Positions 4,056-62,598 of a stretch of 64,000 bases of DNA are shown piece by piece; positions within the stretch are counted from its first letter, which is position 1, and every line of letters starts with the position of its first letter. The DNA is from Minisyncoccota bacterium (GTDB taxonomy: Bacteria; Patescibacteriota; Minisyncoccia; Phycocordibacterales; UBA9973). The notes beneath the pieces are model-generated. The model saw nothing but the letters and a program-made list of their open reading frames with translations. It did not search any database and was not told the origin of the DNA. The stretch lies in assembly GCA_041666225.1 (NCBI GenBank), contig JBAYHJ010000004.1, forward strand, positions 4,350-68,349, given 5' to 3'. A program made the position numbers and the translations under genes.

Positions 4056-5243
4056 TTATTTATCCTTTTTTCTCATTATTGAAATAGCCTCTACCATTAA
4101 AAATGGGTCACATTCTCCATTTTTAACATCACACATATTTAAAAATTCAGGTCCATCTAATGTTACAATAATACTTTTATGCACAGAGACTGTAGGTTTT
4201 ATATAATCCTCACTTTGTAAAACATTTACAAACCAACCTTTCATATCATTGTCTGTTGTTAAAAATATTGTATTAGGAAGAATAAGTGTTCTTGGTAACG
4301 TACTTATACATTGTTTAAAAGCTTCACCCCAAGAATTTTCGATTGATTTTAAAAGTGGTTCAATTTTTTTCTTAAATGCATCGGATAAATTATTCTCACT
4401 ATAAAGTTTAAAAAGCTCTTTTGCATCACGTAACTCAATTTCTAATTTGGTACACATATAATCGAAGAAGGTTTTCTTTCCAAAAGGAAAAGAAAGAACC
4501 GACTTTAATATTCCCTTTGTTACTATTCCTACATCGGTTATTTCTCCGCTAATATCGAGCAATAAATATGAATCTTGTGTTAAATATTTATCTCTTATAG
4601 CTAGATATGTAGATAAAGTAAATGTAGAAAAACTAACTTTTGTATGATGAAAAGTTTTCGATAATGTTTCCTTAATCTTATCTAGACACAATTTAGGAGC
4701 AAGAGATATAACCATATCCATTTCCAAAGATTGACACTTTTTACCGACAGGGTCTTCTATCGCATATCCATTCAAAGATACAGACATTGTATTTTTCTCA
4801 ATAATTTCAGGAGCACCTTCTAGAGTCCCGTATTTTGTCTTATACAATTGAGTAAGATTCGTTATTTCTTTTTCAATTAATTCACTAGCTAAATGTTTTG
4901 TAAAAGTAAAAGGTTTTTCTTTGTTTAGTATGATAGATCTAGTCTCTGATAAATACCACGGTGAAGCGAGGACACAGACAATTTCATCTGGGGCTCCAAT
5001 TTTTTTATCATACAAAGAAGTCACTGTTTCTCTCAAAGCAGAAATCATATCTTTTGTAAAAAAATTAAAATCAAAATCTTTGTGAAATTTTACGTCTGTT
5101 CTTACTGATTTTAATATTACTGGTATCTCTTTATTATCCATAGGAACACGAACGATAGCTCCTCCAACACTTCCAGATCCAATATCAAAAATCGCAATAA
5201 AACTTTCTTTTTTTTGTGTAAATAAAAATCCCATAGTATTCAC
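4056..5243 (-). CDS. actin-fold (ASKHA) ATPase, PilM/FtsA-like
   Basis: 395 aa. A phosphate-1-like N-terminus (IAIFDIGSGSVGGAIV) and a phosphate-2-like motif (LLLDISGEITDVGIV) are present. A bona fide ftsA is annotated elsewhere at 26741, so this is a paralogous actin-like protein. Confidence 0.5.
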   Translation of the reverse strand: MNTMGFLFTQKKESFIAIFDIGSGSVGGAIVRVPMDNKEIPVILKSVRTDVKFHKDFDFNFFTKDMISALRETVTSLYDKKIGAPDEIVCVLASPWYLSETRSIILNKEKPFTFTKHLASELIEKEITNLTQLYKTKYGTLEGAPEIIEKNTMSVSLNGYAIEDPVGKKCQSLEMDMVISLAPKLCLDKIKETLSKTFHHTKVSFSTFTLSTYLAIRDKYLTQDSYLLLDISGEITDVGIVTKGILKSVLSFPFGKKTFFDYMCTKLEIELRDAKELFKLYSENNLSDAFKKKIEPLLKSIENSWGEAFKQCISTLPRTLILPNTIFLTTDNDMKGWFVNVLQSEDYIKPTVSVHKSIIVTLDGPEFLNMCDVKNGECDPFLMVEAISIMRKKDK

Positions 5244-5289
5244 AGTATACTACAGGATTAATAAAAATGCTCAATATGTTGTGGAAAAA

Positions 5290-7113
5290 TTATTCAAGTG
5301 TTGCTTTTATTCTACGTATTCCAGAGGCAACGGCTTCTTCTTTCTGTATTTTGAAATGACCTAATTCTCCTGTTTTAGATACATGAGGACCGCCACAGAA
5401 TTCTTTTGAAATAGCATTATCATCTTCATCTTCTATAAAATAAACTGATACAATATCTGGATACTTAGCCCCAAATTCCATTTGAGCTCCAATCTTTTCT
5501 GCAACTTCTAGTGGCATTTCTTTTCTAACTACATTTAAATTTCTTTTTATCTTATCATTTACCCAATTTTCAGTTTTTATTTTTTCCTCATCAGTAAGTT
5601 TATGATCACAAATAAAATCTATTCGTAGTCGTTCTTCGGTTATATTACTTCCCCTTTGTTTTATATCATGACCAACAACTTCTTGTAAGGCTGCTAAAAG
5701 TAAATGGTGAGCAGTATGAAGTTTAATAGTTTTTTCACTATGATTTGCCAGTCCACCTTTAAACATACCAGCCGATGAAGTTCTTGACTGATTCTGGTGT
5801 AATTTTAGTTTTTTATTAAAATCTTCTAAATCAATAATCCTACCAATTTCTTTAGCCATTTCAATAGTAAGTTCAATGGGAAAACCATAAGATGTAAATA
5901 AAATAAATGGATCTTGTTCTTTTTTGAATTCTTTCATTCCAAGCTCTAAGGTATGTCTAAATTTTATTTCTTCATTGTTTATTTCTTCAAGTATTTTATT
6001 TGAATTTAATTCAAGATCACTATAAAAAGTTTTATATTTTGAAACTACAACTTCTGCAATTAGTTTTAGGGTATTTTTCTCAAATCCTAATTTATCAGCA
6101 AATCTTACCGCACGTCTAACTAATCTACGTAAAACATATCCCCTGTCTGAATTAGAAGGAATAACTCCATCGTTAATCATAAAAACACTAGCCCTCATAT
6201 GATCAGCGACAATTCTCATTTCTTTTCTTGTTTCAACCCAACAACTTTTCCCCGCCTTTATGTATTCTCCATCCTTTTTTTCTCCATAAGAAAGACCTGA
6301 CAACTCTTCTATTTTTTTTATTATATCCTCAAACAAATCAGTATCATAAGCGGTTTGTTTTTTTTGCATGATGGCTGTCATTCTATCAACCCCTGCCCCC
6401 GTATCAACATTTCTTTGTTTTAATTTACCTATAACTATTCCATCTTTTTTTTCATATTCCATAAAAACATCATTCCAGATTTCTATCAAATCTTCAGTTC
6501 GAACTGCATTCAAAAACTCATCTTTAGATAAATCTCCAACCTTATTATCTGTCATATCATAAAACATCTCACTGCAAGGACCACAAGGACCATTCTCTCC
6601 TGGACTCCACCAATTATCATCAGCTTCTAAAAAGTAAATTCTATTTTCAGGTATTCCTAAACTTTTCCAAACTTCAAAAGATTCTATATCCTTGGGTGCA
6701 TTTTTATCACCTTCAAAACAAGTCACATAAAGTAACTTTGGATTAAGTCCCAACCCTTCTTTTTTCGAAGTCAAAAATTCATAACTCCAAGTTATTGCTT
6801 CTTTTTTAAAATAATCACCCAGTGACCAATTACCCATCATTTCAAAAAATGAAAAATGCCTATTATCTCCAATACTATCTAAATCACCAGTTCTTACGCA
6901 TTTTTGTATATTAGCAATTCTCTTTCCCATGGTGTGTTCTTGTCCCAAAAGATAAGGTACCAATGGTTGCATTCCTGCTGTATTAAAAAGCACAGAGGGA
7001 TCATTGTCTGGTAAAAGTGAGGCAGAATGGATTATTTTATGACCTCTTTTCTCAAAAAATTTTAAAAACCGATTTCTTATTTCGCTTGAGTGCATCTTTG
7101 CATAATACAACAA
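5290..7113 (-). CDS. alaS: alanyl-tRNA synthetase, short 607-aa form without an apparent C-terminal C-Ala domain
   Basis: The N-terminus ..FLKFFEKRGHKIIHSASLLPDNDPSVLFNTAGMQP.. is the AlaRS class II core. The editing-domain HxxxH (HTAHHLL) and CGGPHV motifs are present. Confidence 0.85.
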   Translation of the reverse strand: MLYYAKMHSSEIRNRFLKFFEKRGHKIIHSASLLPDNDPSVLFNTAGMQPLVPYLLGQEHTMGKRIANIQKCVRTGDLDSIGDNRHFSFFEMMGNWSLGDYFKKEAITWSYEFLTSKKEGLGLNPKLLYVTCFEGDKNAPKDIESFEVWKSLGIPENRIYFLEADDNWWSPGENGPCGPCSEMFYDMTDNKVGDLSKDEFLNAVRTEDLIEIWNDVFMEYEKKDGIVIGKLKQRNVDTGAGVDRMTAIMQKKQTAYDTDLFEDIIKKIEELSGLSYGEKKDGEYIKAGKSCWVETRKEMRIVADHMRASVFMINDGVIPSNSDRGYVLRRLVRRAVRFADKLGFEKNTLKLIAEVVVSKYKTFYSDLELNSNKILEEINNEEIKFRHTLELGMKEFKKEQDPFILFTSYGFPIELTIEMAKEIGRIIDLEDFNKKLKLHQNQSRTSSAGMFKGGLANHSEKTIKLHTAHHLLLAALQEVVGHDIKQRGSNITEERLRIDFICDHKLTDEEKIKTENWVNDKIKRNLNVVRKEMPLEVAEKIGAQMEFGAKYPDIVSVYFIEDEDDNAISKEFCGGPHVSKTGELGHFKIQKEEAVASGIRRIKATLE

Positions 7114-11876: not shown

Positions 11877-12791
11877 TTATTTTAAATATTTACTTATATT
11901 ACTCTTATGTTCTTCAAATGTCGTAGCATAATGTACTTTACCATTTTTATCGTGAAGATAATAATAATACGCTGAATCTACTGAATTTATAGCTGCATTA
12001 ATAGACATTAACCCCGGATTATTTAATGGTTTTTGAGGTAATCCTTTATTTATATATGTATCCTTATCTATATCTACCTGAAGTGGCATTCCTGTAGAAA
12101 TTCTCTTCCACAAAATACCAGAAATAATAGCAATATCATCTTTACCACCCGCTTCTCCTTCTAAAATCGAAGCCATGATTATAACCTGAGACAAACTTCT
12201 TCCACTTTTTTTTATTGATTCATCAATTTTTTTAATTTTAACATCAAAATTATTTGATAATTTCTCAACTATTTCTGAAGTAGTATCAAGTGGATAGAAA
12301 AAATATGTATCTGGGAATAAATATCCCTGTTTGTTTTCTGTACTAATTAAAAATAAATCTTTTCGAAAGCCAGACAATTTATCAGCAAGTAGTGCAGCAA
12401 TAGCTTTATTTGTTAATCCTTCGCGAATTGTTATTTTAATCGGCTCAATATTATGATGACCCCTACCTATTTGCCAAGCAACAATCCAAACTGGTGAATT
12501 TTTATTTATTAAATAATCTCCAGATACAATACCTTTTTTTGTTCCAAATAATTTAATAAAAATTTTTAAAACGGAATTATTTCTTATTGCATTTTTATTT
12601 TCAAGGTCTAATGTCAAGGCATTGACGGATTGACCTTTCTCTATATGTATAATTAAATCTTTACTATCAAAAGGGGCTGAAAATAAATAATATCCTATCA
12701 ATAATAAAAAACCAATAACTAATAATATCCAATGTATTCTTAGTTGCTTTATCTTTTCTGGTTGCCAGTTTTTACTAATACTGTCATCCAT
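11877..12791 (-). CDS. mltG: endolytic murein transglycosylase MltG (YceG family)
   Basis: 304 aa with an N-terminal TM anchor. The C-terminus ..NPGLMSINAAINSVDSAYYYYLHDKNGKVHYATTFEEHKSNI.. matches the YceG/MltG signature. Confidence 0.75.
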   Translation of the reverse strand: MDDSISKNWQPEKIKQLRIHWILLVIGFLLLIGYYLFSAPFDSKDLIIHIEKGQSVNALTLDLENKNAIRNNSVLKIFIKLFGTKKGIVSGDYLINKNSPVWIVAWQIGRGHHNIEPIKITIREGLTNKAIAALLADKLSGFRKDLFLISTENKQGYLFPDTYFFYPLDTTSEIVEKLSNNFDVKIKKIDESIKKSGRSLSQVIIMASILEGEAGGKDDIAIISGILWKRISTGMPLQVDIDKDTYINKGLPQKPLNNPGLMSINAAINSVDSAYYYYLHDKNGKVHYATTFEEHKSNISKYLK

Positions 12792-18577: not shown

Positions 18578-19340
18578 GAACCAGTCCTAAGCATTGCTTA
18601 GGACCAGTCACCTTTTGATAACCATTCAAAAATTTCTTTCCTAAAAGATTCAGGATCAGGGAAATAGTTTACAAAATTTTCTAAACTTAAAATTTTATTT
18701 TCGTCTTTTTGGACCCCTTGATAATAATCAAGACTACTCCATTTATAATCATGAAGAAATTTTAATGCTTTATCTTTGTTTTTAATTCCATTTTCTTTCC
18801 AATCACTTTGTATAAGTTTTATAGGATTAAGATGAATATATGAAAAAAGATATTTAGCTTGATTCTCAGTAACAATATGAACAGATTTAAATTTATCTTC
18901 AAACAATTTACCTGTACGATTATATTTTTTATTAAAATATTTAGAATAAGAAGTACATAATTTAAGCATAAATTTTGCCACATTATTTAACTCCTCATCT
19001 GGTCCTAAGCGTGGCTTAGGACTGAGATATATATGAAAATGATTTGGCATTAATACATAAGCTCCTATATTCACAAGACTCTCTCCTCTTTCAAAATCAA
19101 AAGCGCTTATATGTTTTTTAACTATATCATTTCTAAAATTTATATTATAGATAGAATTTGAAAGATATAGAAGTTTAATAAATCTAAAATAATCCTCTTC
19201 ATCAAGAAAAATCTCCTGTTTACTATTTCCACGATTATAAATATGAAAAAATTCTCCTTCAACTAATGGCGTCATTCTTATTGACATAAATATATTATAC
19301 CAAAAGCACCAATCCTAAGCAATGCTTAGGACTGGTGCTT
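18578..19340. mobile_element. IS200/IS605-like or REP-associated (RAYT-type) element of about 760 bp with identical subterminal hairpins at both ends
   Basis: A hairpin gtcctaagc-att-gcttaggac lies at 18584-18604 and overlaps the tnpA stop codon. A near-identical hairpin (agcacca.tcctaagc-aat-gcttaggactggtgct) lies at 19305-19339. A third copy (ggtcctaagc-gtg-gcttaggact) lies inside the CDS at 19001-19024. Confidence 0.6.
18598..19287 (-). CDS. tnpA: Y1 HuH transposase (IS200-like TnpA / REP-associated tyrosine transposase)
   Basis: 229 aa. A HuH motif (..YVLMPNHFHIYLSP..) and a downstream catalytic Tyr in ..YIHLNPIK.. are present. The N-terminus FHIYNRGN..EIFLDEEDY is typical of IS200/RAYT. 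Confidence 0.6.
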   Translation of the reverse strand: MSIRMTPLVEGEFFHIYNRGNSKQEIFLDEEDYFRFIKLLYLSNSIYNINFRNDIVKKHISAFDFERGESLVNIGAYVLMPNHFHIYLSPKPRLGPDEELNNVAKFMLKLCTSYSKYFNKKYNRTGKLFEDKFKSVHIVTENQAKYLFSYIHLNPIKLIQSDWKENGIKNKDKALKFLHDYKWSSLDYYQGVQKDENKILSLENFVNYFPDPESFRKEIFEWLSKGDWS

Positions 19341-31412: not shown

Positions 31413-32042
31413 TTATACCTTTAAAACCTCCTTATTTAACATATGCCCATTATTATCTAAATCATAAAATATTACATCTCCAAAATCCATCTCTAAACCA
31501 GAAACACCTTCATCGGAAATATTTTCTATATATTTAATAATTGATCGCAAAGAATTGCCGTGTGCTACTATTAAAACATCTTTCTCTTCTTTTAAAATTG
31601 GCAAAATTTTATTTAAGAAAAATGGAACAGACCTCTCATATACCATCTTCAAACTTTCTCCATTTGTAATTGGTGTATCCCACCCACGTCTCAATTTAAC
31701 AAATTCATCATGGCCCAATTCTTTTTCTATCTCCCATTTATTTTTACCAGTATAGTCTCCATAATCGCGTTCATTTATTTCTTTTGCAACTTCAATAGGT
31801 ATATTATTATTTACATTTCTAACAGAAAGTATTTGTTCCAATGTTTCTCGTGTCCTTTTTAGAGTTGAAATAAAAACATAATCAAAATGAAAATCTTTTA
31901 TTTTTTCTCCTATCTCTTTAGCCTTTTTAAAACCATCTGCCGACAAACTAATATCAGTAAAACCTGTCCATTTACCTAGTTTATTCCATTCTGATTCCTG
32001 ATGCCTAATTAATACAAGTTTACCCATTTTTTGTGTTTCCAT
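31413..32042 (-). CDS. gpmA: 2,3-bisphosphoglycerate-dependent phosphoglycerate mutase
   Basis: ..LVLIRHQESEWN.. (RHGE-type catalytic His motif) and a histidine phosphatase fold. Confidence 0.75.
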   Translation of the reverse strand: METQKMGKLVLIRHQESEWNKLGKWTGFTDISLSADGFKKAKEIGEKIKDFHFDYVFISTLKRTRETLEQILSVRNVNNNIPIEVAKEINERDYGDYTGKNKWEIEKELGHDEFVKLRRGWDTPITNGESLKMVYERSVPFFLNKILPILKEEKDVLIVAHGNSLRSIIKYIENISDEGVSGLEMDFGDVIFYDLDNNGHMLNKEVLKV

Positions 32043-32130
32043 CTATTAATTATATCAAAAATCTAATTTAATTGAAATTATATTATAAGATTATAAAGAG
32101 TTTTTCGCTGAATTATGATAAAATAGCTAT

Positions 32131-32967
32131 ATGAAAATAAATTATGGTGTAAAAATTTCTCCTCCAACTATAGAAATAGCCAGAGCTTTTGGCTCAAATG
32201 AAGAACCAGTTCCACTCAAAGGTGGTCAAAATACTTCATATGTCGCTGGGAACATTGTTTTGAAACCAGCTGGAGGAAAAAGTGGCACCGAGTGGAGAGC
32301 CCAAGTTTTTAGTAGTTTACCAGAAAGTAGAGAAGTGCGTTTTCATAGACCCATAAAATCAATTCATGGCGATTGGGCATATGAGGGCTATGTAGCTTGG
32401 GCTTTTTTGAAAGGAGAACATGTGAAAGGACAATACGATAAAAAATTAAAAGCTAGTCGTGCATTTCATGAGCTATTAAAGGGAGTTCCCCAACCTGAAG
32501 GTTTAAAAACCCCAAAAGGTCCATGGTCTACTGGTAATTGGGTTGCACTCGGTCAAAAAGAATTTAATTACGATAAGGAATTTATGGATTTATATAACCA
32601 AATTAAACCGCATTTAAAACCTTTGCCAGAAGATAGACAACTAGTTCATGGTGATATGTTTCAAAATTTTATTTTAGACGAAATTTTACCCCCAGCTCTG
32701 ATAGATTTTTCTGGTGTTTGGGCACCGAATGGTTTTGCCGAAGGTATTATGCTTGCTGATGCCATAAATTGGGGAAACGCTACTCCAGAAGAATTAGAAG
32801 TATTTAAACAAGTTCCCAACATTGAACAAATGGCATGGAGGGGTGCCCTAACTAGAATTAGTGAGCAAGCGGAACATATTAAATTCTTTGGGAAAGAAAA
32901 AGCTGATGCTGTACAAGAGGCTAGAAATTTACAAAAGGTATTTGACTATTTGAATCAAAATTTTTAA
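32131..32967 (+). CDS. phosphotransferase (APH/ChoK-like kinase fold) family protein
   Basis: ..LVHGDMFQNFIL.. (HGDxxxxN catalytic loop) and ..IDFSG.. (DFG-like motif). Confidence 0.4.
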   Translation: MKINYGVKISPPTIEIARAFGSNEEPVPLKGGQNTSYVAGNIVLKPAGGKSGTEWRAQVFSSLPESREVRFHRPIKSIHGDWAYEGYVAWAFLKGEHVKGQYDKKLKASRAFHELLKGVPQPEGLKTPKGPWSTGNWVALGQKEFNYDKEFMDLYNQIKPHLKPLPEDRQLVHGDMFQNFILDEILPPALIDFSGVWAPNGFAEGIMLADAINWGNATPEELEVFKQVPNIEQMAWRGALTRISEQAEHIKFFGKEKADAVQEARNLQKVFDYLNQNF

Positions 32968-32987
32968 AGATTTAATTCACTAAAATC

Positions 32988-33072
32988 TGTGACCCTTTGT
33001 AGTTCAAATTGGAATCAGACTGTTGAAAATATAAGGGGATTTAGTAAATTAACAATGGAAACTAATTAATAT
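32988..33072. repeat. about 85-nt repeat A (tgtgaccctttgtagttcaaattggaatcagac...ataagggg...aactaattaata) with a degenerate tRNA-Glu 3'-end-like 5' part
   Basis: Near-identical to repeat C at 34234 and partially to repeat B at 33775. It begins with the same tgtgaccct as the tRNA-Glu 3' end (35555). Confidence 0.6.
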
Positions 33073-33073
33073 A

Positions 33074-33628
33074 TTATTTATCTTTCTGAAAATTAATCAT
33101 ATCTGTGTTAGAAAATATTCTAGACACTGAAGATTCTTTTATCATTCCAAGAGAAGGATTCATTCCAAATCCTATGTATTCAATTTTTTTATTTTTATAT
33201 TTAATAACATATTTAATTGCTGGAATAAGATCAGTATCTGAACTAATTACGATTGCTGTATCATATAAATTATCTACAGCCCCTATTACTAAATCTACTG
33301 ATAATTTTACATCTACCCCCTTCTCTCTTATTTTACCATCATCATACATGATCTTACCTGGTTTTACACCAAAACCTTCTGCTCTTAAACTTTCCAAAAA
33401 CTTCTGTTGACTTTTCACCATTTTTTCACCTTTTTCTGTATTATCTACATCTCTGACTATTCCAACATAATATCTTTTTGAGAATAACTTTCTATCTCCA
33501 ACTAAATGATCAATAAAATTAGAGTAATTTACTCTTTTTGATTGTTGCGGTATTCCTATGCTTTTTAAGCTTCTATATAGATTGCCTCCATCTATGTATA
33601 TTGCAACTGTTTCTATTTTATTATTCAT
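33074..33628 (-). CDS. NYN-domain (LabA-like, PIN-like) protein
   Basis: ..VAIYIDGGNLYRS.. and ..IVISSDTDLIPAI.., the hallmark NYN/LabA motifs. Confidence 0.65.
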   Translation of the reverse strand: MNNKIETVAIYIDGGNLYRSLKSIGIPQQSKRVNYSNFIDHLVGDRKLFSKRYYVGIVRDVDNTEKGEKMVKSQQKFLESLRAEGFGVKPGKIMYDDGKIREKGVDVKLSVDLVIGAVDNLYDTAIVISSDTDLIPAIKYVIKYKNKKIEYIGFGMNPSLGMIKESSVSRIFSNTDMINFQKDK

Positions 33629-33671
33629 ACAATTATAATTTTAACATATTTTAAACATAACAAAAACCACC

Positions 33672-33704
33672 TCTGCCCGTGAGGACAGAGGTGGTGCTGT
33701 TAGT
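33672..33704 (-). terminator. hairpin ccacctctg..cagaggtgg followed by T5 on the minus strand
   Basis: 9-bp perfect stem plus TTTTTGTT on the reverse strand. Confidence 0.4.
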
Positions 33705-33774
33705 ACTCGCATTATATACTAATATAGTAAATTGATCAATATGACTGTGGATAACTATAATTTAATCCATATTG

Positions 33775-33818
33775 AATAAAATTGGAATCAAATTATAGAA
33801 AATATAAGGGTATTTACT
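33775..33818. repeat. partial repeat B (attggaatcaaattatagaaaatataagggtattta), related to the 3' half of repeats A and C
   Basis: Sequence similarity to 33011-33050 and 34254-34290. Confidence 0.5.
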
Positions 33819-33896
33819 TCCCTATCTTGCCAAAATGAATGATTTATTGTATTATAAATAAAATTGAAAATGTTATGAACCTTAAACTTTACTGTC

Positions 33897-34121
33897 ATGA
33901 AAACAAAAAAGATTTTTGAGATAAGCTTTACTATTGCAATTATTTTCTTTATAGGAATCATCGCAAGTAGCTTTCTCTCTAAACACAATGTAAGCACCGG
34001 GATTATCAACATCAAAACTGTTTGGTCAATTTGCATTTATGCATGGGGGTCATCTTTTGCTGTTGCAATAATTTTTGGCATTAAAACCTTTTTGGACAAA
34101 AAGTTTCCCCGGGTGAGTTAG
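33897..34121 (+). CDS. small two-TM membrane protein (hypothetical)
   Basis: 74 aa with two hydrophobic helices. A plus-strand hairpin plus T-tract follows at about 34150-34175. It overlaps the antisense ORF 33788..34036, so only one of the two is likely real. Confidence 0.3.
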   Translation: MKTKKIFEISFTIAIIFFIGIIASSFLSKHNVSTGIINIKTVWSICIYAWGSSFAVAIIFGIKTFLDKKFPRVS

Positions 34122-34233
34122 CCAATAATGATACTCACAAAAAATAAACCCTGCGAAAGCGGGGTTTAAATTTGCTCTAAATTATATTTTAGAATCAAAA
34201 CAAACCTTATTATATAAGGATATAAATTACGCT

Positions 34234-34302
34234 GTGACCCTTTGTAGTTCAAATTGGAATCAGATTATAGATAATATAAGGGTATTTAAGGAACTAATTA
34301 AT
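34234..34302. repeat. repeat C, a copy of repeat A
   Basis: tgtgaccctttgtagttcaaattggaatcagattatagataatataagggtatttaaggaactaattaata. It lies at the 3' end of gene 34298..34666. Confidence 0.6.
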
Positions 34303-34666
34303 ATTTAACATTAAGATACTCTTGCATTTTACTGGCTTTAAATTTAATAAAAGCAACATTTTCACTAATTTTATCTGCTACACCAGATACAAATTGTCCA
34401 AAATTTCTCCTTTCTTCTTCGTTCTTTATTTTTGATGTTAAATTACGAAGAGAGGTTTCTATTTGACTCAATTTTGAAGCATCTTGTAGTAATACTTCTA
34501 AATCATCTCCTAATCCATTTTTTGTAAAATTTTCAACTGAATTTACTATTTTAGATAATTTTGATTTTAAATCATCCATATCTGAATAATCATTTAAATC
34601 ATTAGCAATTATTCCAAAACTAAAAGAATCTTGATTTTTTGCCATTCCTCGTAATACAAAAGACAA
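34298..34666 (-). CDS. hypothetical protein; possibly the C-terminal part of a frameshifted coiled-coil gene
   Basis: 122-aa ORF starting 5 nt after the stop of the upstream ORF 34672..35259. A T6 homopolymer sits at the junction. Confidence 0.35.
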   Translation of the reverse strand: MSFVLRGMAKNQDSFSFGIIANDLNDYSDMDDLKSKLSKIVNSVENFTKNGLGDDLEVLLQDASKLSQIETSLRNLTSKIKNEEERRNFGQFVSGVADKISENVAFIKFKASKMQEYLNVKY

Positions 34667-34671
34667 TCCTT

Positions 34672-35259
34672 CTAATTCATCTTTAATAAATTTTTGCTCA
34701 AGAATATTTTTTCAGTATTCTCACTTTTATTAACTTCTTGTTTTTTAATTTCGAAATTTAATTTATTTTCTAAATCTTTTTGTATTAACAAAAGATTACC
34801 TAAATTTTCTTTTTTATCAAGAAGAGATGGAATATCTTCTGAAGATGGCATTCCTAGTTTTAAACGCAATTCATTTAGCTTGTTGGTAGTACTTACAATA
34901 TCATTTTTTGTTTTTTCTATCTCGCCATCAATTTTTTCTTTTTCTGTTTTCATTTTCTCAAAGTCAGAAATATCACCGATTTTAGGAGAAGTAAGATTTT
35001 CTTTTGAGGTTGCAAACTTTTTATATTCATCAATTGTTTCTATTTTATCGTCCACTTTTTTACTTTCTAGAAGATTTGCACTAAAATTATCAGCAAAGCG
35101 ATATCCATATTTATCTGTATCACCTCTATCTTTATATTCTTTATCTTGATCAGGAATAGTATCATATTCTTTCTGAAGTTCATCTTGGCGTTTGATGGCC
35201 TCTTGTCTTTCAAGAGAAAGGTTTCTTTCTTGATTTGGTTGGGAAAATGTTTCATTCAT
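34672..35259 (-). CDS. hypothetical coiled-coil protein; possibly the N-terminal part of a split gene
   Basis: 195 aa, highly charged with a K/E-rich heptad-like sequence. Confidence 0.4.
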   Translation of the reverse strand: MNETFSQPNQERNLSLERQEAIKRQDELQKEYDTIPDQDKEYKDRGDTDKYGYRFADNFSANLLESKKVDDKIETIDEYKKFATSKENLTSPKIGDISDFEKMKTEKEKIDGEIEKTKNDIVSTTNKLNELRLKLGMPSSEDIPSLLDKKENLGNLLLIQKDLENKLNFEIKKQEVNKSENTEKIFLSKNLLKMN

Positions 35260-35347
35260 ATGATATTTATTATATCAGATTCCAAATCATAAAAATATCC
35301 TATTGGGTCTTTAGAAATAACCTATACGAAATAAGTGTTTTAAATGA

Positions 35348-35377
35348 TGTGACCCTACCGGGAACGTGATTACACTT
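35348..35377. repeat. direct duplicate of the tRNA-Glu 3'-terminal 17 nt (tgtgaccctaccgggaa) plus a diverged extension; att-like scar
   Basis: An exact 17-nt match to 35555-35571 lies 207 bp away in the same orientation. An inverted copy (tagggtcaca) is at 35504-35513. Confidence 0.6.
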
Positions 35378-35505
35378 ATCTCCCTCGACTAAAACTTTTT
35401 CGTCAAAAAGTTTTGTCTGGGCACCAGTTCATCCATTTTTCTTGCTAGAAAAATATGATTCCGCTGTTCGATTCCCGGACGCAAATAAAGCAGTTTATTT
35501 GCTTA

Positions 35506-35563
35506 GGGTCACAAATGCTAAAAAAGCCTTATTTTATAAGGCTTTTTTAGCATTTGTGACCCT
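35506..35563. repeat. 58-nt perfect palindrome whose right arm is the tRNA-Glu 3' end; it doubles as the tRNA terminator hairpin
   Basis: gggtcacaaatgctaaaaaagcctta-tttta-taaggcttttttagcatttgtgaccc. Confidence 0.6.
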
Positions 35564-35628
35564 ACCGGGAATCGAACCCGGATTACCGGCTTGAAAAGCC
35601 GATGTCCTAACCGTTAGACGATAAGGCC
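35557..35628 (-). tRNA. tRNA-Glu (anticodon TTC); CCA not encoded
   Basis: The sequence GGCCTTA-TC-GTC..TTAGGAC-A-TCGGC-TTTTCAA-GCCGG-TAAT-CCGGG-TTCGATT-CCCGG-TAGGGTC-A aligns to canonical tRNA-Glu. The acceptor stem has two G-U pairs. Confidence 0.75.
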
Positions 35629-35823
35629 GATGTAATTACTAATGAATAATTACTAATTAATAATTGTAATCCGAAGATAACCAATGTTTATGAGTTCTAA
35701 ATAATTAGTAATCAGTAACTGGTAATCATTAATTACTTGTGAGTATAGCATTTTTGTTGGAAAAATCAAATATTTTATTCAATAAAGAGCTTAAAACATA
35801 AGCATATTTTGTTAAATTCTAAC

Positions 35824-35852
35824 TTGACAAATGACCCTTATGGTGATATAAT
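35824..35852 (+). promoter_or_regulatory. consensus sigma-70-type promoter (TTGACA-17 nt-TATAAT) followed by an about 150-nt structured leader
   Basis: ttgaca aatgacccttatggtga tataat. An inverted repeat downstream (gatttgattatttt ... aaaataatcaaatc) brackets a GC-rich loop before the 35998 start. Confidence 0.5.
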
Positions 35853-37795: not shown

Positions 37796-38122
37796 TTATT
37801 GTGTCATATTTCCAACATTGTAGTTCCCTGTATCGTTTACATTAATTTTTTCTTCTCCAACGGTATTCAGGATCAAACTCATGATGCCAAAGACTGAAAT
37901 CATTATAAACATTCCTATTACTCCCCAAAGCATATGGTCCTTACTGGTCTTTCGTATCTCTTCATTATCAGGTGATAATAAATACTTTAGAAGTCCATAG
38001 AGAAAATAAACCACCGCAAGCGCAAACAATAATACAATGAGAGGGTTTATAATAACCCTATCTATACTTTTCATTAAAGTAGTGATACTTGCTTCAGCTA
38101 TTGGTATAATCTGGAACATCAT
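37796..38122 (-). CDS. VirB2/TrbC-like pilin-fold small membrane protein, paralog 1
   Basis: The pattern is TM helix, then YF/W-G..KY..SPDNEEIRKTSKD, then a second TM helix ending ..FG. This pattern is shared with four neighbouring genes. Confidence 0.4.
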   Translation of the reverse strand: MMFQIIPIAEASITTLMKSIDRVIINPLIVLLFALAVVYFLYGLLKYLLSPDNEEIRKTSKDHMLWGVIGMFIMISVFGIMSLILNTVGEEKINVNDTGNYNVGNMTQ

Positions 38123-38131
38123 AAATAATTA

Positions 38132-38533
38132 TTAACAAGTAATACCTGCATTTGGGTTAGGAATACAAGGAATATCCCTTGGATCTAATTGTTCAGGTCC
38201 AACTCCAAATGTACTTGTAATAAGTGATAAAATACCCCAGAAAGCAACTATGATAAACAAGCCGATAAGACCTTGGATGATTTTACCACGAGCACCCTTC
38301 TTTGCTTCTTCATCTGTTGAAACAGTATATTGAATAACTCCCCAAATAAAGTAAACAACAGCAAGAGTTATAAGTACTGGAATAACATAAGCCAATAATT
38401 GAGCAATATCTCTAAAAATAGTAAAAGCATTTACATCATCTGCTGCTAAAACCAACATAGGAGAAACAACTCCCAAAACTGCCCCAACCGAAATAATTTT
38501 TTTCATATAATTTATTTTTAATAATAAAAACAA
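38132..38533 (-). CDS. VirB2/TrbC-like pilin-fold protein with signal peptide, paralog 2
   Basis: A signal peptide (MKKIISVGAVLGVVSPMLVLA|ADD) is followed by ..AVVYFIWGVIQYTVSTDEEAKKGARGKIIQGLIGLFIIVAFWGILSLITSTFG. The start is likely the MKKI Met at about 38506. Confidence 0.45.
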   Translation of the reverse strand: MFLLLKINYMKKIISVGAVLGVVSPMLVLAADDVNAFTIFRDIAQLLAYVIPVLITLAVVYFIWGVIQYTVSTDEEAKKGARGKIIQGLIGLFIIVAFWGILSLITSTFGVGPEQLDPRDIPCIPNPNAGITC

Positions 38534-38614
38534 TTCTTATAATATCGTCTTTTTTACCGACCAAAGTGAAAAAGACACTTACCTTTACAAACCTTATTAT
38601 ATCATACAATAATC

Positions 38615-39046
38615 TTATTGTGGAAGCTGTGGAATTGTATTTGTAAGGCCAAATGTTCCAGTAAGAATAGCTACCAATCCCCACATTGAAAGCATTACAA
38701 ATAAAGCGATCAATCCACCAATAATAAAACTCTTGCCCTTCTTTCTTTTCTCTTCATTGTCAGGATTCAAATAAAACTGAATAACTCCCCAGATAAATGC
38801 AGCAGTCGCAAGTGCAAATAAAAATGGCACTACTGTTTTAAGTAAAAAACAACTCGCCCAGTTCACAACACCTGTGATATCTTTCAAACTATTACCAGCA
38901 CAAACACTTTGTGTGGTAGTTGTAGTTGGAGCTGCATTTGCAACACTTGGCACTATCCCCATGGAAGTTATCATCAGCACTCCTACGATAATAAAACTAC
39001 TAAATAAAACTAATTTTTTCATACGTTTTTTCTTAATATTAAACAT
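38615..39046 (-). CDS. VirB2/TrbC-like pilin-fold protein with signal peptide, paralog 3
   Basis: A signal peptide is followed by a Thr-rich linker and ..AAFIWGVIQFYLNPDNEEKRKKGKSFIIGGLIALFVMLSMWGLVAILTGTFG. Confidence 0.45.
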   Translation of the reverse strand: MFNIKKKRMKKLVLFSSFIIVGVLMITSMGIVPSVANAAPTTTTTQSVCAGNSLKDITGVVNWASCFLLKTVVPFLFALATAAFIWGVIQFYLNPDNEEKRKKGKSFIIGGLIALFVMLSMWGLVAILTGTFGLTNTIPQLPQ

Positions 39047-39052
39047 AATATT

Positions 39053-39514
39053 TTATGTTGTACTTGTAATATCGACCACTGTCTTCTGAATCGCTTCAGC
39101 AATAACAAACGCTCCCAATAACAACGCTGCCCCTATCAAGGTATACACAAGGGCCTTTTTTGCCTTCGTCAGCTTTTCGGAATTGCCTGAAGCCGAAACA
39201 AAAAGGAAACCAGTGTAAATGATAGCGAGAGCAACAATAGGAATACCAACAACAAGAACGATATTTATGAGAGCTTTTATAAAAGAAGGAATATCTTGAA
39301 TATTATCACCTAGGGGGTTGTGAATAGCAGTGTTGATGTTTGTGCCAGGAGTAGAACCAGTATCACCAGCATCAACACAAGGTTGTTCACCGGCTCCACC
39401 ACAAGCATTCACAAATAAAACCGGAGTAACCAACATAAAGGCAAATACAATCACAAAACTATATTTTAAAATACTCGAGAGTAAACTATATTTTTTCTTT
39501 TTTAGAATTTTCAT
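39053..39514 (-). CDS. pilin-fold paralog 4 (more divergent)
   Basis: It shares the N-terminus MK.LK.KKYS.LS..LKYSFV with the 456-aa neighbour. The C-terminus has a hydrophobic helix, then SGNSEKLTKAKKAL, then a second hydrophobic helix. Confidence 0.35.
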   Translation of the reverse strand: MKILKKKKYSLLSSILKYSFVIVFAFMLVTPVLFVNACGGAGEQPCVDAGDTGSTPGTNINTAIHNPLGDNIQDIPSFIKALINIVLVVGIPIVALAIIYTGFLFVSASGNSEKLTKAKKALVYTLIGAALLLGAFVIAEAIQKTVVDITSTT

Positions 39515-39535
39515 ATTTTATAAAATTAATAATAA

Positions 39536-40906
39536 TTAAAGTATCAAAAAAGCATCTTTTGGATCAAAACCAAGTGTTGCCAATAATGTCTTTACAATGA
39601 GCCATGCAGCCAAAGCAATCAAGTATCCAATGATAACATTTTTGAAAATCTTTTTTGCTTTGTTAATATTTTCTGAGCTCCCCATATCACTTAAATATAA
39701 CCATCCGACATATACAAGGATGAGGGCAAAAAGAGGTGTAGCCATAGTAATAAGTAAAAAGTTTATAACTCTATTAACTCCGGCCAATAATACATTGAAG
39801 TTACAAGGATTTTTAAATCCTCCACTTGTAGTATCCACTTCCGTATTACATATTGGAACTAAGCCTTTAAATTTTATATCACCAGTTGTTGGTGTTATAA
39901 TATTTCCTCCTCCTGATGTAGGTGTACAAGTAGGATAATCAGTCGCTCCATTTAAACAAGTACCCGAAATTGTAGTAACAGTAAATATGCTTGGGTTTAG
40001 ATTACTCGTATCTCCAGAATATGTATTTGCGGATGTTTTTATGGTGATTTTTCCACTTGTCGCTCCCTCTGGAACTTTGACGGTAATCTTATTGGCAGTA
40101 TTGGTAGTCGTAACAGTATTTGTCGTATTAAAAAGTACACTGCTTACATTGTTGAAATTGCTACCATCAATTGTGATAACATCACCTACTTTTCCAGAAG
40201 TTGGAGTGAAACTTGTTATCTTTGGACTCATGATAGGCATACTATTTTCAATAAGAACCGAAATAGTATAATTTTTTGTCGAGCCATTTCCAGCTGTAAC
40301 GACGTAGGTAACATTGTTGGTGAAGTTTTTTGCAACACCAGAGGCTGGATTTACTGTGGCTTCACTAGATACGCTAATCGTAGGAACTAAGGCTGTGATG
40401 TTGGTTCCATAAGGTACAGTTAAGATAACTGAATTTGCCCCGATAAAACCAGTTACAACAGGATTAAAATTTAAAAAATCAAAAGAAATAATATCTTTGG
40501 CAGATGAAGTTGAAGCAGGGGTTAAAAAAGTCGTAGTCCCTACAGAGCCACTTGTTCCTGTATACATAACTCCCGCTCTATATTCACCTGATGGGCTTAA
40601 TCCAGTAAAAGTAGAACTGGCTGTGCCGAGGTTACTACTCAATACAGAAAAAGATTGATCATAATTGGGAGTATTACCTACCTCAATTACTCGAATGATC
40701 ACAGTAGCATCAGGAGTAAGACCTTCTGCTGATATGTGTGCTGTCGTTGGAGTAATATTTGAACTCGTCATCGTTACTGCGGCTAAGGATAGTTTAGGAT
40801 ATACAAAAAAACTTGAAAAAATCATAACTCCAGTAAGAACACCAACAAAACTATATTTCAAAAAATTTGATAAGATACTATATTTTTTTGTTTTTAAAAA
40901 TTTCAT
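39536..40906 (-). CDS. large Ser/Thr-rich surface protein with an IPT/TIG-like domain fused to a C-terminal VirB2/TrbC-like pilin module; candidate pilus adhesin
   Basis: 456 aa. A signal/TM N-terminus is followed by Ig-like repeats (..SPKITSFTPTSGKVGDVITIDGSNF..). The C-terminus ..YVGWLYLSDMGSSENINKAKKIFKNVIIGYLIALAAWLIVKTLLATLG matches the paralog motif. Confidence 0.4.
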   Translation of the reverse strand: MKFLKTKKYSILSNFLKYSFVGVLTGVMIFSSFFVYPKLSLAAVTMTSSNITPTTAHISAEGLTPDATVIIRVIEVGNTPNYDQSFSVLSSNLGTASSTFTGLSPSGEYRAGVMYTGTSGSVGTTTFLTPASTSSAKDIISFDFLNFNPVVTGFIGANSVILTVPYGTNITALVPTISVSSEATVNPASGVAKNFTNNVTYVVTAGNGSTKNYTISVLIENSMPIMSPKITSFTPTSGKVGDVITIDGSNFNNVSSVLFNTTNTVTTTNTANKITVKVPEGATSGKITIKTSANTYSGDTSNLNPSIFTVTTISGTCLNGATDYPTCTPTSGGGNIITPTTGDIKFKGLVPICNTEVDTTSGGFKNPCNFNVLLAGVNRVINFLLITMATPLFALILVYVGWLYLSDMGSSENINKAKKIFKNVIIGYLIALAAWLIVKTLLATLGFDPKDAFLIL

Positions 40907-60933: not shown

Positions 60934-61806
60934 CTAAACTCCTATCTTCCAAATTCCTTTTTCAAAAAATGCTTCAATGGTTTGACGAGTTGCCTTGTTG
61001 ATAAGATTTGAATGTGATATTTTATTCTTTTTTGCATATTCAACTAACGGAATAATCTTTTTACCATCTAGATATGCTAAACGTTTGTGATAACTATTTG
61101 TAAGTGATCTAGCAACAATTTCTTCCATTATTTTAGTCTTACCCTTCTCATCAAATTCCTTAAATGCATCATAGTATTTTTTGCGATCAATAAATTTAAT
61201 GTTAATTGGTACAAATCCTTCTCTAATAAGAAGATAATTATTTAATACTCTTCCAATACGTCCATTCCCATCACAAAATGGGTGTGTGTATTCAAAAACC
61301 AAATGAAGTTTCGCTATACGTTGTATAATATTTTCATGACCACTTGCATTATATTCATTTATCATTTTCTCGAGTCGATCAATTACTTCTTCTGGCTTAG
61401 GGGCAATGTGACTTCCAACTCTGACATATTCACCTGTTTTTCTAAATCTTCCAGCAATATCATCTCGAATATTTGAAATAAGCATTTTATGAAGAGATAA
61501 AATTACACCAAGGTTTAATTCTTGTTCCTTAGCTCTTTTATCAAGATAAGATACAACTCTCGCAAGATTTTTTGCTTCAAAAATTTCACGCTCACTAATA
61601 AATCTATCAAGATCAATCTGTAAAAGTATTTTTTCTGTTTCTTCTAAAGTAAGTGTGCTGTTTTCAATTGCATTCGAATTATAAACTTGCTCAGCAACTT
61701 CTGCTTCACTAATAAGTTTTATAAGTGAATCCTTACCCATAGAAGCTTTATAATAACGCTCTCTCAATAAATTTATTTTATTATATACACTTAATACTTT
61801 TACCAT
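60934..61806 (-). CDS. Fic family protein (AMPylase-type fold)
   Basis: ..HPFCDGNGRIGR.., the canonical Fic HPFx[DE]GNGR motif. Confidence 0.75.
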   Translation of the reverse strand: MVKVLSVYNKINLLRERYYKASMGKDSLIKLISEAEVAEQVYNSNAIENSTLTLEETEKILLQIDLDRFISEREIFEAKNLARVVSYLDKRAKEQELNLGVILSLHKMLISNIRDDIAGRFRKTGEYVRVGSHIAPKPEEVIDRLEKMINEYNASGHENIIQRIAKLHLVFEYTHPFCDGNGRIGRVLNNYLLIREGFVPINIKFIDRKKYYDAFKEFDEKGKTKIMEEIVARSLTNSYHKRLAYLDGKKIIPLVEYAKKNKISHSNLINKATRQTIEAFFEKGIWKIGV

Positions 61807-62118: not shown

Positions 62119-62598
62119 ATGAAAACCAATGTCTATATAGATGGAAATAATTTATATCGTTCCGCCCAAGAACTAGGTTTTAATATTGATTATAAAAAGT
62201 TTAGAGGTTGGCTCAGACAAAAATATAACGCAAATAATATCTATTTATTTATTGGACTTGTACCTGATAGGGTAAAGTTCTATGAATATCTACAAAGTTG
62301 TGGTTATATTTTAGTTTTTAAACAAACCGTTTCTGTTGGAGAAAAAATTAAAGGCAATTGTGACGCAGAACTTGTTTTAAAAACTGTTTCAGATTTTTAT
62401 ACTAAATCATTTGATAAATGTATCCTAGTTACAGGAGATGGAGACTTCGGGTGCCTTGTAGAATTTCTAAAAGAAAATAATTCCATAAACAAAGTTTTAT
62501 CTCCAGATGTAAATAAATGTTCATTTTTATTGAGAAATAAAAATGTAGAAATTACATTCTTAAACAATCTTTATCATAAATTCTCAAACAAGATATAA
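62119..62598 (+). CDS. NYN-domain (LabA-like) protein, second paralog
   Basis: ..NVYIDGNNLYRSA.. and ..ILVTGDGDFGCLV.. are NYN/LabA motifs. Confidence 0.65.
   Translation: MKTNVYIDGNNLYRSAQELGFNIDYKKFRGWLRQKYNANNIYLFIGLVPDRVKFYEYLQSCGYILVFKQTVSVGEKIKGNCDAELVLKTVSDFYTKSFDKCILVTGDGDFGCLVEFLKENNSINKVLSPDVNKCSFLLRNKNVEITFLNNLYHKFSNKI

Follow-up and report, generated by a model that had tools for sequence, protein, structure and literature searches.

Positions 32988–35628 of the DNA analysed here (a stretch of 64,000 nucleotides, referred to below as the window, with a GC content of 31.7% and lying within an 83,963-bp contig of a metagenome-assembled 'Candidatus Paceibacterota bacterium' genome) hold a short series of genes on the 3′ side of a tRNA-Glu(UUC) gene. 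This region is probably the tRNA-proximal part of a cassette array that is anchored at the tRNA-Glu gene and was built by site-specific recombination, with the recombinase acting in trans. The cassettes are usually single genes, and they are bounded by copies of a ~58-bp site, here called R1, that begins with ten nucleotides matching the 3′ end of the tRNA. Next to the tRNA lies a structured element, here called B, which is an inverted and diverged copy of tRNA-Glu itself. Similar arrays are found on related contigs (numbered L001 and onwards), and comparing them gives junctions at which the same flank is joined to the tRNA in one genome and to R1 in another.

A repeated site at the 3′ end of tRNA-Glu

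The 9-nt sequence TGTGACCCT, which is the tRNA-Glu 3′ end in reverse complement, occurs five times in the window, with four direct copies (32988, 34233, 35348 and 35555 on the plus strand) and one inverted copy (35505, minus strand). All five fall inside 32988–35563, a span of ~2.6 kb, and the rest of the 64 kb has none; 0.26 copies would be expected by chance, and five copies were reached in 0 of 100 shuffles. A longer sequence of 17 nt, TGTGACCCTACCGGGAA, is identical at 35348 and 35555. It consists of two trailer nucleotides, the discriminator, the 3′ strands of the acceptor and T stems and two T-loop nucleotides, and at 35348 it is made up of the core of a cassette junction followed by the 5′ strand of the closing stem of B.

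Two of the direct copies belong to longer repeats, A and C, which have an exact stretch of 32 nt in common, are 86% identical across 66 nt, and each lie 10–30 nt past the stop codon of a minus-strand gene (33074 and 34298). They are members of the R1 family, in which a 10-nt core, TGTGACCCTA (the reverse complement of the last 8 nt of the tRNA plus 2 trailer nt), is followed by ~12 variable nt and a nearly invariant block of 35 nt, ATTGGAAYCAGATTGTAGAGAATATAAGGGGATTT. The family was collected in two steps, with a degenerate pattern of 24 specified bases searched against metagenome contigs, and with a profile made from the copies found. The pattern matched 18 contigs, all 18 being true members. 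As a result, 50 distinct R1 copies can be aligned free of gaps, and conservation sets in abruptly at (T)GTGACCC, is low for the ~12 nt, and is then near-invariant. Because the 35-nt block is so well kept in 50 distinct copies from many metagenomes, the site is maintained and not decaying.

In 21 related contigs R1 forms arrays in a single orientation, with up to 8 copies and a median spacing of 705 bp. Arrays of 3–8 same-strand copies were identified by the profile in L011 (8 copies, 7 of which are also on L012, this being the same array), L023 and L024 (5 each), L013, L021 and L022 (4 each), and L019 and the window (3 each). They are present in independent assemblies from NCBI, ENA, JGI and Logan, and are therefore no assembly artefact. 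No copy lies outside an array in the window or in the fetched loci with their flanks (~250 kb, profile search). Where a tRNA-Glu gene is visible (window, L001, L002, L011, L012, L013, L019, L023, L031 and L033), R1 is on its 3′ side and in the same relative orientation in 10 of 10 loci, and this holds for both the UUC and the CUC isoacceptor, whose 3′ end is common. R1 is in other words tied to tRNA-Glu and not a dispersed family unrelated to it. Four scans of viral contigs with the R1 and B patterns gave nothing, or five chance matches without extended similarity, so that a phage or plasmid carrier is not indicated.

No consensus structure was found for R1 on either strand (RNAalifold, 45 copies), and the minimum free energy of the consensus is weak whether RNA or DNA parameters are used. 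A fold like that of an attC site was considered for R1 and rejected, as none was found.

The initial annotation of this region, made from the window alone, had described a recombination hotspot at the tRNA-Glu 3′ end in which repeats bound small gene modules, and this has held: relatives carry the same repeats with different genes. The exact 17-nt repeat at 35348, the placement of repeats A and C at the 3′ ends of minus-strand genes, and the gene content it gave (a NYN-domain gene, now with Pfam support, a small ORF (open reading frame) with two hydrophobic segments, and a split coiled-coil gene) were also right. A core-less R1 copy at 33765–33816, an inverted copy of the tRNA 3′ end at 35467–35513, and a perfect palindrome at the tRNA had escaped it.

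Cassettes and their junctions

There are 34 distinct R1-to-R1 units, ranging in length from 178 to 2112 bp with a median of 705 bp. They contain 32 ORFs of at least 60 amino acids (aa), 19 in one direction and 13 in the opposite one; two units have more than one ORF and four have none. Minus-oriented genes have their own upstream regions of TGnTATAAT type, and terminators are found at the ends of cassettes. R1 lies just beyond the stop codon of minus-oriented genes, and in plus-oriented cassettes it ends 35–90 nt ahead of the start codon. The cargo is diverse, with 54 of 77 cassette ORFs lacking a relative in the set, and the annotated part includes a Ser/Thr kinase, Maf, HAD hydrolases, a histidine phosphatase, P-loop kinases, an S-adenosylmethionine (SAM) methyltransferase, ASCH, NYN and a pilin-like protein, which suggests metabolic and surface tuning and not classical mobile-element functions. 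Nothing recombinase-like was found among the 77 ORFs by Pfam and BLAST (0 of 77).

Cassettes recur as units of homology. As an example, L013 3437–4147 matches L010 4006–4704 (74%), and L011 9957–10736, from an array at tRNA-Glu(UUC), matches L023 4035–4816 (69%), from an array at tRNA-Glu(CUC). In both cases the neighbours are unrelated and the homology is bounded by R1. Close relatives differ in their cassette content. Between R1 copy A and B the window has the NYN gene, a membrane-protein ORF and the coiled-coil gene, and L002 has an ASCH gene and a P-loop kinase. L001 and L002 were found via the protein of the kinase-like gene at the outer end of the window's array, for which they have orthologues with 94% and 88% amino acid identity, and both have R1 copies. 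Since a copy precedes this gene in L001 and in L002, the kinase-like gene is itself a cassette, and not, as the initial annotation had assumed, the host flank of an empty site. The kinase-like gene followed by tRNA-Glu in L001 was considered as such an empty site and rejected; it involves the CUC isoacceptor at a different locus, and is a hybrid junction. An exact-protein look-up of the kinase-like and S4 genes found nothing on record.

Also at the level of single cassettes, the coiled-coil gene of the window is split in two by a frameshift. One T added at 34691 or 34707 (in a T5 or T6 run, 34691–34712) would fuse the two ORFs into one of 320 aa, and the frameshift could represent a pseudogene, an assembly error or phase variation. 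The region called L1, just left of the B core in the window, is 80% identical to L002 9838–9929, where it abuts an R1 copy and not B, and the L1 motif stands left of cores in L011, L013, L016, L019, L022 and L010 as well.

That tRNA genes collect elements at their 3′ ends offers a ready explanation, which is that integrase-bearing islands or prophages were serially inserted at the tRNA-Glu 3′ end and then eroded to islets by losing the integrases and the greater part of the cargo, leaving decaying att (attachment-site) scars. This was the reading of the initial annotation, with the older scars taken to be the more decayed, and it accounts for the direct repetition of the tRNA 3′-end core; real integrase islands do exist at tRNA-Glu(CUC) in L001 and at tRNA-Ser in L031, and tandem accretion at tRNA genes is well known, e.g. 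from the tycheposon islands (10.1101/2020.12.28.424599). Nevertheless it is improbable. The 35-nt block is near-invariant across many samples, the units are single genes of ~0.7 kb, and the 77 cassette ORFs include no fragment of an integrase, replication gene or phage gene. One and the same R1 arm is found at every junction, which independent islands would not give, and the window has no gradient of decay away from the tRNA, as the farthest copy, A, has an intact core and the middle copy has none.

The place of the exchange can be read from hybrid junctions. In three independent genome pairs the same left flank and core TGTGACCCTA are followed by the body of the tRNA in one member and by R1 in its counterpart. 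In the first pair, L011/L012 and L020/L022 share a flank of 107 nt (B, terminator and TGTGACCCTA), and their homology stops exactly after TGTGACCCTA, with the tRNA body following in L011/L012 and R1 in L020/L022, and at least four cassettes come after it in L022. L023 and L017 show the equivalent switch with 42 nt shared. In the third case, the 3′ flank of the kinase-like gene leads into tRNA-Glu(CUC) in L001, whereas in the window and L002 it leads into R1, and the homology of L001 to the window ends at 32996. These junctions place recombination in the core. Homologous recombination needs more than 10 nt, and the junctions are therefore explained most simply by a site-specific exchange there. 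The cassettes of L020/L022 sit between B and the position that the tRNA holds in L011, a layout which suggests that cassettes may enter next to the tRNA.

A different explanation is that R1 is mainly a promoter, operator or insulator, that cassettes are swapped by homologous recombination at the 58-bp repeats after DNA uptake, and that the likeness of core and tRNA is incidental or ancestral. The 3′ block of R1 (TTGGAAYCAGATTGTAGAGAATAT) looks by eye like the TTGGAAYCTGRTATAAT stretch found immediately 5′ of cassette genes in minus orientation (window, L002 and L013), and the distance of 35–90 nt between R1 and the start codon in plus-oriented cassettes would suit a regulatory element, as would the lack of secondary structure. 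Moreover, invariant stretches of R1 could serve RecA-dependent exchange, the pilin genes adjacent to the array are Pfam T4SS_pilin in relatives, and a PF03772 (Competence) gene is found ~10 kb away in L031. We still regard this as unlikely, because gene orientation is without strong bias (19 same, 13 opposite) with R1 just past the stop of minus-oriented genes, because in all three hybrid junctions the change between tRNA body and R1 comes exactly at the end of the 10-nt core, which is below the length for homologous recombination, and because a promoter module has no need to be confined to the 3′ side of tRNA-Glu.

Each unit of the array starts at an R1 copy and ends at the next core, and between them there is usually one gene, which may face either way and has a promoter and a terminator of its own. 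Cassettes would be gained, lost and swapped by conservative site-specific recombination inside the core, the partners being either two cores within arrays or the R1 of a cassette and the core of the tRNA gene, and here the tRNA would act as a simple primary site and R1 as a complex one. The gene for the recombinase would lie at some other place in the genome, or a visiting element would bring it. Incoming cassettes would take the position by the tRNA and displace older units outward. The comparisons show the site family, its arrays and their tie to tRNA-Glu, the hybrid junctions, the modular homology and the structure of B, and what we infer at this point are circular intermediates, the recombinase type and tRNA-proximal insertion as a rule. 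The window contains five units (those of the kinase-like gene, the NYN gene, the 74-aa membrane ORF and the coiled-coil gene, and B), with B converging on the real tRNA over a shared bidirectional terminator and keeping its conserved fold.

Element B

B starts with a core (35348–35357), followed by CCGGGA, which is the 5′ strand of stem P1 (35358–35363 with 35473–35478), a mini-hairpin of 3 bp (35366–35375) and two larger hairpins. Then come a copy of the T loop and the 3′ T-stem strand (TTCGATTCCCGG; T-loop copy 35466–35473), a 9-bp hairpin with an invariant GCAG loop (hp3, 35481–35502) and an inverted copy of the tRNA 3′ end (35505–35513). After this there is a bidirectional terminator, common to B and the real tRNA. 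A long palindrome, of other sequence than that of the window, is found at the equivalent place in L002, L011, L013, L010 and L021. B adjoins the tRNA in L002, L011/L012, L013 and L033, lies within arrays in L020/L022, L010 and L021, and is not present in several arrays (L019, L023 and L001). The copy of the tRNA 3′ end at 35348, which the initial annotation had taken for a displaced att fragment, is the 5′ end of this conserved, tRNA-derived structure.

The structure is backed by covariation. For three helices in seven copies of B, 96.7% of cells are paired versus 73% in shuffles, with compensatory double changes at 9 pairs, and the covariation score was matched by 0 of 500 shuffles, slid controls reaching a quarter of it. 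A fourth hairpin, with a TAC triloop, covaries by eye (GAACCT/AGGTTC, GACGAT/ATCGTC, GCCTAT/ATAGGC, TCCAT/ATGGA). The outer pairing between the two cores of B is unconserved, as the left core is absent in L011, L020 and L021b. In L020, L002 and L011 the 5′ part of B is colinear, in sense, with nt 2–50 of tRNA-Glu (p 0.0007–0.018), and there is no antisense signal; the copy in the window has diverged too far for a sense alignment. From this colinear alignment it follows that B is a copy of tRNA-Glu that is inverted and has diverged and expanded. No Rfam family (Rfam 15) matches B at the gathering threshold, and at E-value cut-offs of 5 (window) and 1 (loci) there are only chance matches of microRNA-like kind, on the palindrome (window, L002, L011 and L013).

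As for the strand, the minus (tRNA-sense) strand of B folds better in five of seven copies and has more G-U pairs (14 vs 5). The order of the tRNA-like segments is that of the plus strand, and in L011 there are terminators on both sides of B. In the three helices that were scored, bases change only as double Watson-Crick changes, and G-U pairs are found in 0 of 123 cells; this is unusual for RNA and would also fit a structure at the DNA level or a constraint on both strands. B may be an RNA, or folded DNA that aids recombination or termination.

Recombinase candidates, neighbouring genes and known systems

No integrase was found in the window, either by tblastn with the tyrosine integrase of L001 or by reading all ORF translations, nor in the 10 kb past its right end, ~74 kb around the array being covered in all. 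tblastn with this tyrosine integrase over the array loci gave no match, and no recombinase was found in the array flanks of L011, L023, L002 and L033, where the flanking genes are housekeeping genes. The initial annotation had also seen no integrase nearby, and had proposed mobilisation in trans as one option; this fits the lack of an integrase near the array, with the trans action itself being something that we infer.

L001 (10859–18300; also L026–L030) contains an island of conventional type, 7.3 kb long, which codes for a tyrosine integrase, a Schlafen/AlbA_2 protein and helix-turn-helix (HTH) proteins. It lies between two copies of tRNA-Glu(CUC) that are identical over nt 1–68 save one mismatch, and the copy by the integrase has two acceptor-stem mismatches. 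Its integrase was rejected as a specific lead to the array recombinase, because the family is very large (1708 homologues at 60–75% identity, in Parcubacteria and Bacteroidota) and the three relatives examined (66–72%) are not by a tRNA-Glu or R1; the enzyme could act on the arrays in trans. A separate island is found at the other tRNA of the neighbourhood in L031, where a tyrosine integrase (4095–5291) lies directly 3′ of tRNA-Ser(CGA) and the adjacent tRNA-Val is missing.

Another candidate enzyme is that of the IS200-like Y1 transposase-family gene of the window (Table 1), which is syntenic near gyrA in L033 and L035 and looks domesticated rather than mobile. If it supplied the enzyme, R1 units might be non-autonomous transposable elements, either like miniature inverted-repeat transposable elements (MITEs) or dependent on an enzyme of HUH/IS200 type, that home to the tRNA-Glu 3′ end. 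The gene is a conserved, single-copy Y1_Tnp gene, and HUH enzymes insert by a short specific sequence and recognise hairpins, in which B is rich. This is nonetheless very improbable: R1 lacks terminal inverted repeats, a hairpin and any target-site duplication other than the core, L035 has the Y1 gene with no tRNA-Glu or array at the locus, and B is missing from several arrays, as listed above.

Several observations weigh against a tRNA-Glu-anchored array built by a recombinase in trans. No recombinase for the arrays was found in the window, the 10 kb past it or the array flanks examined, and the sole integrase found beside a tRNA-Glu is that of L001, in a conventional island. Excised circles and empty sites were not observed. 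The left side of the core is unconserved, which is unusual for a simple double-stranded site of a tyrosine recombinase. Beyond the core, the R1 body resembles the tRNA T arm with p ~0.03 for the family consensus, and the copy in the window compared with its own UUC tRNA is not significant, so that the likeness of 'ggaatcagac' to the T arm, which the initial annotation had noted, is marginal. The 3′ block of R1 is, by eye, like the extended −10 of some cassette promoters and may have a regulatory role, additionally or instead, and the 58-bp repeats could support homologous exchange also.

Table 1. Coordinates of the array, its sites and further features in the window
Feature	Position	Strand	Remarks
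Y1 transposase-family gene, IS200-like, single	18598–19287	−	Pfam E 8e-5
Kinase-like gene	32131–32967	+	outermost cassette of window; no Pfam match; no R1 to its left in window
R1 copy A	32987–33044	+	core TGTGACCCT at 32988–32996, then R1 body; left boundary of NYN cassette; nhmmer E 2e-15
NYN-domain gene	33074–33628	−	cargo of cassette 1; Pfam PF01936, E 1e-16
GC-rich hairpin and T run	33666–33695	−	like an intrinsic terminator; just upstream of NYN start
R1 copy without core	33765–33816	+	degenerate junction, upstream of 74-aa ORF; nhmmer E 2e-9, model positions 7–58
74-aa ORF, two hydrophobic segments	33897–34121	+	cargo of cassette 2; no Pfam match
Terminator-like hairpin	34145–34168	.	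right end of cassette 2; reported on +, by eye a terminator on both strands
R1 copy C	34232–34288	+	core at 34233–34241; left boundary of coiled-coil cassette
Coiled-coil gene, ORFs of 195 and 122 aa	34298–35259	−	frameshift in homopolymer run
L1, conserved region	35291–35347	−	upstream of minus-oriented cassette genes; abuts next core
B element, 166 nt	35348–35513	.	structured, inverted, tRNA-Glu-derived; non-coding
Perfect palindrome, 29 nt	35504–35564	.	inverted core, bidirectional terminator, core and 3′ end of tRNA
tRNA-Glu(UUC)	35556–35628	−	array anchor; core is its last 8 nt and 2 trailer nt

On the 5′ side of tRNA-Glu, AT-rich repeats of TAATTACTAAT type are found in the window (35631–35737), with similar ones upstream of the tRNA in L002 and L011. 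Direct duplications of the tRNA-Glu 5′ end are seen just upstream of the gene in L002 (~12000–12060; 16 nt flanking a 34-bp insert) and L001 (18290–18375; 9 nt flanking ~75 bp), and may be footprints of events on the 5′ side of the tRNA. In L002 (9800–12100, versus 32100–35630 in the window) the array and tRNA-Glu form a block whose orientation to the two conserved flanks, on the tRNA-Ser/Val and on the pilin side, is the reverse of that in the window, L011 and L033.

Beyond the array, a gene for a 209-aa His_Phos_1 protein, similar to cofactor-dependent phosphoglycerate mutase (dPGM), lies by tRNA-Ser (31413–32042, minus strand). At the same place L011, L002, L024 and L033 have a 502-aa cofactor-independent phosphoglycerate mutase (iPGM), which looks like non-orthologous replacement at one locus. 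On the other side, a perfect TTGACA-17-TATAAT promoter with a TG extension (35824–35852, plus strand) is upstream of the gene for a 362-aa membrane protein that has no Pfam family and 38 homologues at E ≤ 1e-20. A run of small membrane-protein genes follows by the array (37796–40906, minus strand), with counterparts in L031, L033 and L035 that are Pfam T4SS_pilin. Far from the array there is a second NYN-domain gene (62119–62598, plus strand), with a Fic-domain gene beside it (60934–61806, minus strand).

Genomes of the Candidate Phyla Radiation (CPR, or Patescibacteria) are very small, and how accessory genes are gained and exchanged in them is poorly understood. An array anchored at a tRNA, with a crossover core of 10 nt and a 58-bp site, would offer a concrete and testable mechanism of gene flux. 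A more far-reaching idea, which we put forward tentatively and to which we give somewhat less than an even chance, is that the arrays belong to an undescribed gene-capture system of Paceibacterota, analogous to integrons and a main route of gene flux. Its primary sites would be both tRNA-Glu 3′ ends, each self-expressed single-gene cassette would have an unstructured, double-stranded 58-bp R1 site, the recombinase would be unlinked, and B would be an accessory module of RNA or folded DNA. No description of such arrays in CPR bacteria was found in the literature, which is weak evidence of novelty. In practical terms, the R1 motif is a handle for recovering cassettes from metagenomes, by polymerase chain reaction (PCR) or read mining, and B adds an unannotated, tRNA-derived structured element with strong covariation support.

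Among known systems, tandem islands at tRNA and transfer-messenger RNA (tmRNA) genes, such as the tycheposon islands of Prochlorococcus (10.1101/2020.12.28.424599) and the ssrA islands of Dehalococcoides (PMC3146451), also target the tRNA 3′ end, have direct repeats of a partial tRNA, push older units outward and keep flexible genes by the tRNA. These islands are, however, multi-kb in size, encode an integrase and in most cases replication proteins, and contain partial tRNAs that are simply duplicated target sequence, whereas the units described here are single genes without a mobility gene, share 10 nt with the tRNA and have a conserved 48-nt arm of non-tRNA sequence after each core. The integration and replication modules of tycheposons (tyrosine or large serine recombinase, primase/helicase) were not found in a Pfam scan of the cassette ORFs. 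Arrangements of Islander type are seen in so far as there is an intact tRNA at one end and a displaced repeat of its 3′ fragment (the 10-nt core at each junction, and 17 nt at 35348). The tRNA segment shared in Islander-type islands is usually much longer than here. An integrase inside the unit is found in 0 of 34 R1-bounded units, and only in the separate 7.3-kb island of L001.

Cis-mobilizable elements (CIMEs) and integrative mobilizable elements without an integrase (PMC5704250) are likewise bounded by att sites, lack recombination genes, depend on an enzyme from elsewhere and occur in tandem at one att site. They differ in being several kb long and derived by decay from integrative and conjugative elements (ICEs), next to a related ICE, while here no parent element is seen and arrays have at least 8 gene-sized units. 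Modules with Xer recombination sites (pdif modules, and integrative mobile elements exploiting Xer, IMEX) have 28-bp XerC-6-XerD sites in alternating orientation, whereas R1 has one orientation and no 11-6-11 dyad by eye. Repeats of MITE or insertion sequence (IS) origin would not fit either, as R1 is without inverted repeats and its copies are confined to arrays in ~250 kb.

For B the comparison is with structured elements derived from tRNAs, of which the tRNA-like domain of tmRNA, the tRNA-like modules of Y RNAs and the tRNA-derived short interspersed nuclear elements (SINEs) are known examples. The T loop is kept in all B copies, as are the 3′ strands of the T stem and the acceptor stem, and the copies of L020, L002 and L011 also have, in colinear order, the 5′ strand of the acceptor stem, the region of the D arm and the anticodon segment CUUUUC. 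Unlike these elements, B is inverted against its parent tRNA, has taken on a new fold, a four-way junction with CCGGGA/UCCCGG as its closing stem and an additional 9-bp GCAG-loop hairpin, and is without an Rfam family, Rfam membership being the only comparison made.

In organisation the arrays come close to chromosomal integrons and to clusters of attC sites without an integron integrase (CALINs; PMC4889954). There too, cassettes are mostly single genes of roughly 0.5–1 kb with diverse and mostly unannotated cargo, the site is ~60 bp long, species-specific, conserved and in one orientation, the primary site is at one end of the array, and arrays can exist without an adjacent integrase, as CALINs do. 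R1 is on the other hand conserved in sequence and is not a folded attC, which is conserved in structure (R″-L″/L′-R′ hairpin), and integron cassettes are mostly promoterless, co-oriented and driven by the promoter Pc, whereas genes here face both ways and have their own promoters and terminators. There is no adjacent intI or attI, a tRNA gene provides the primary site with its 3′ end, and the host belongs to CPR. As R1 has no hairpin and no integrase is found in ~74 kb, the array is not an integron. What the two have in common is the layout of gene-sized cassettes parted by one site family in one orientation, and the array would thus be a second, independently built answer to the problem of gene stockpiling that integrons have solved.

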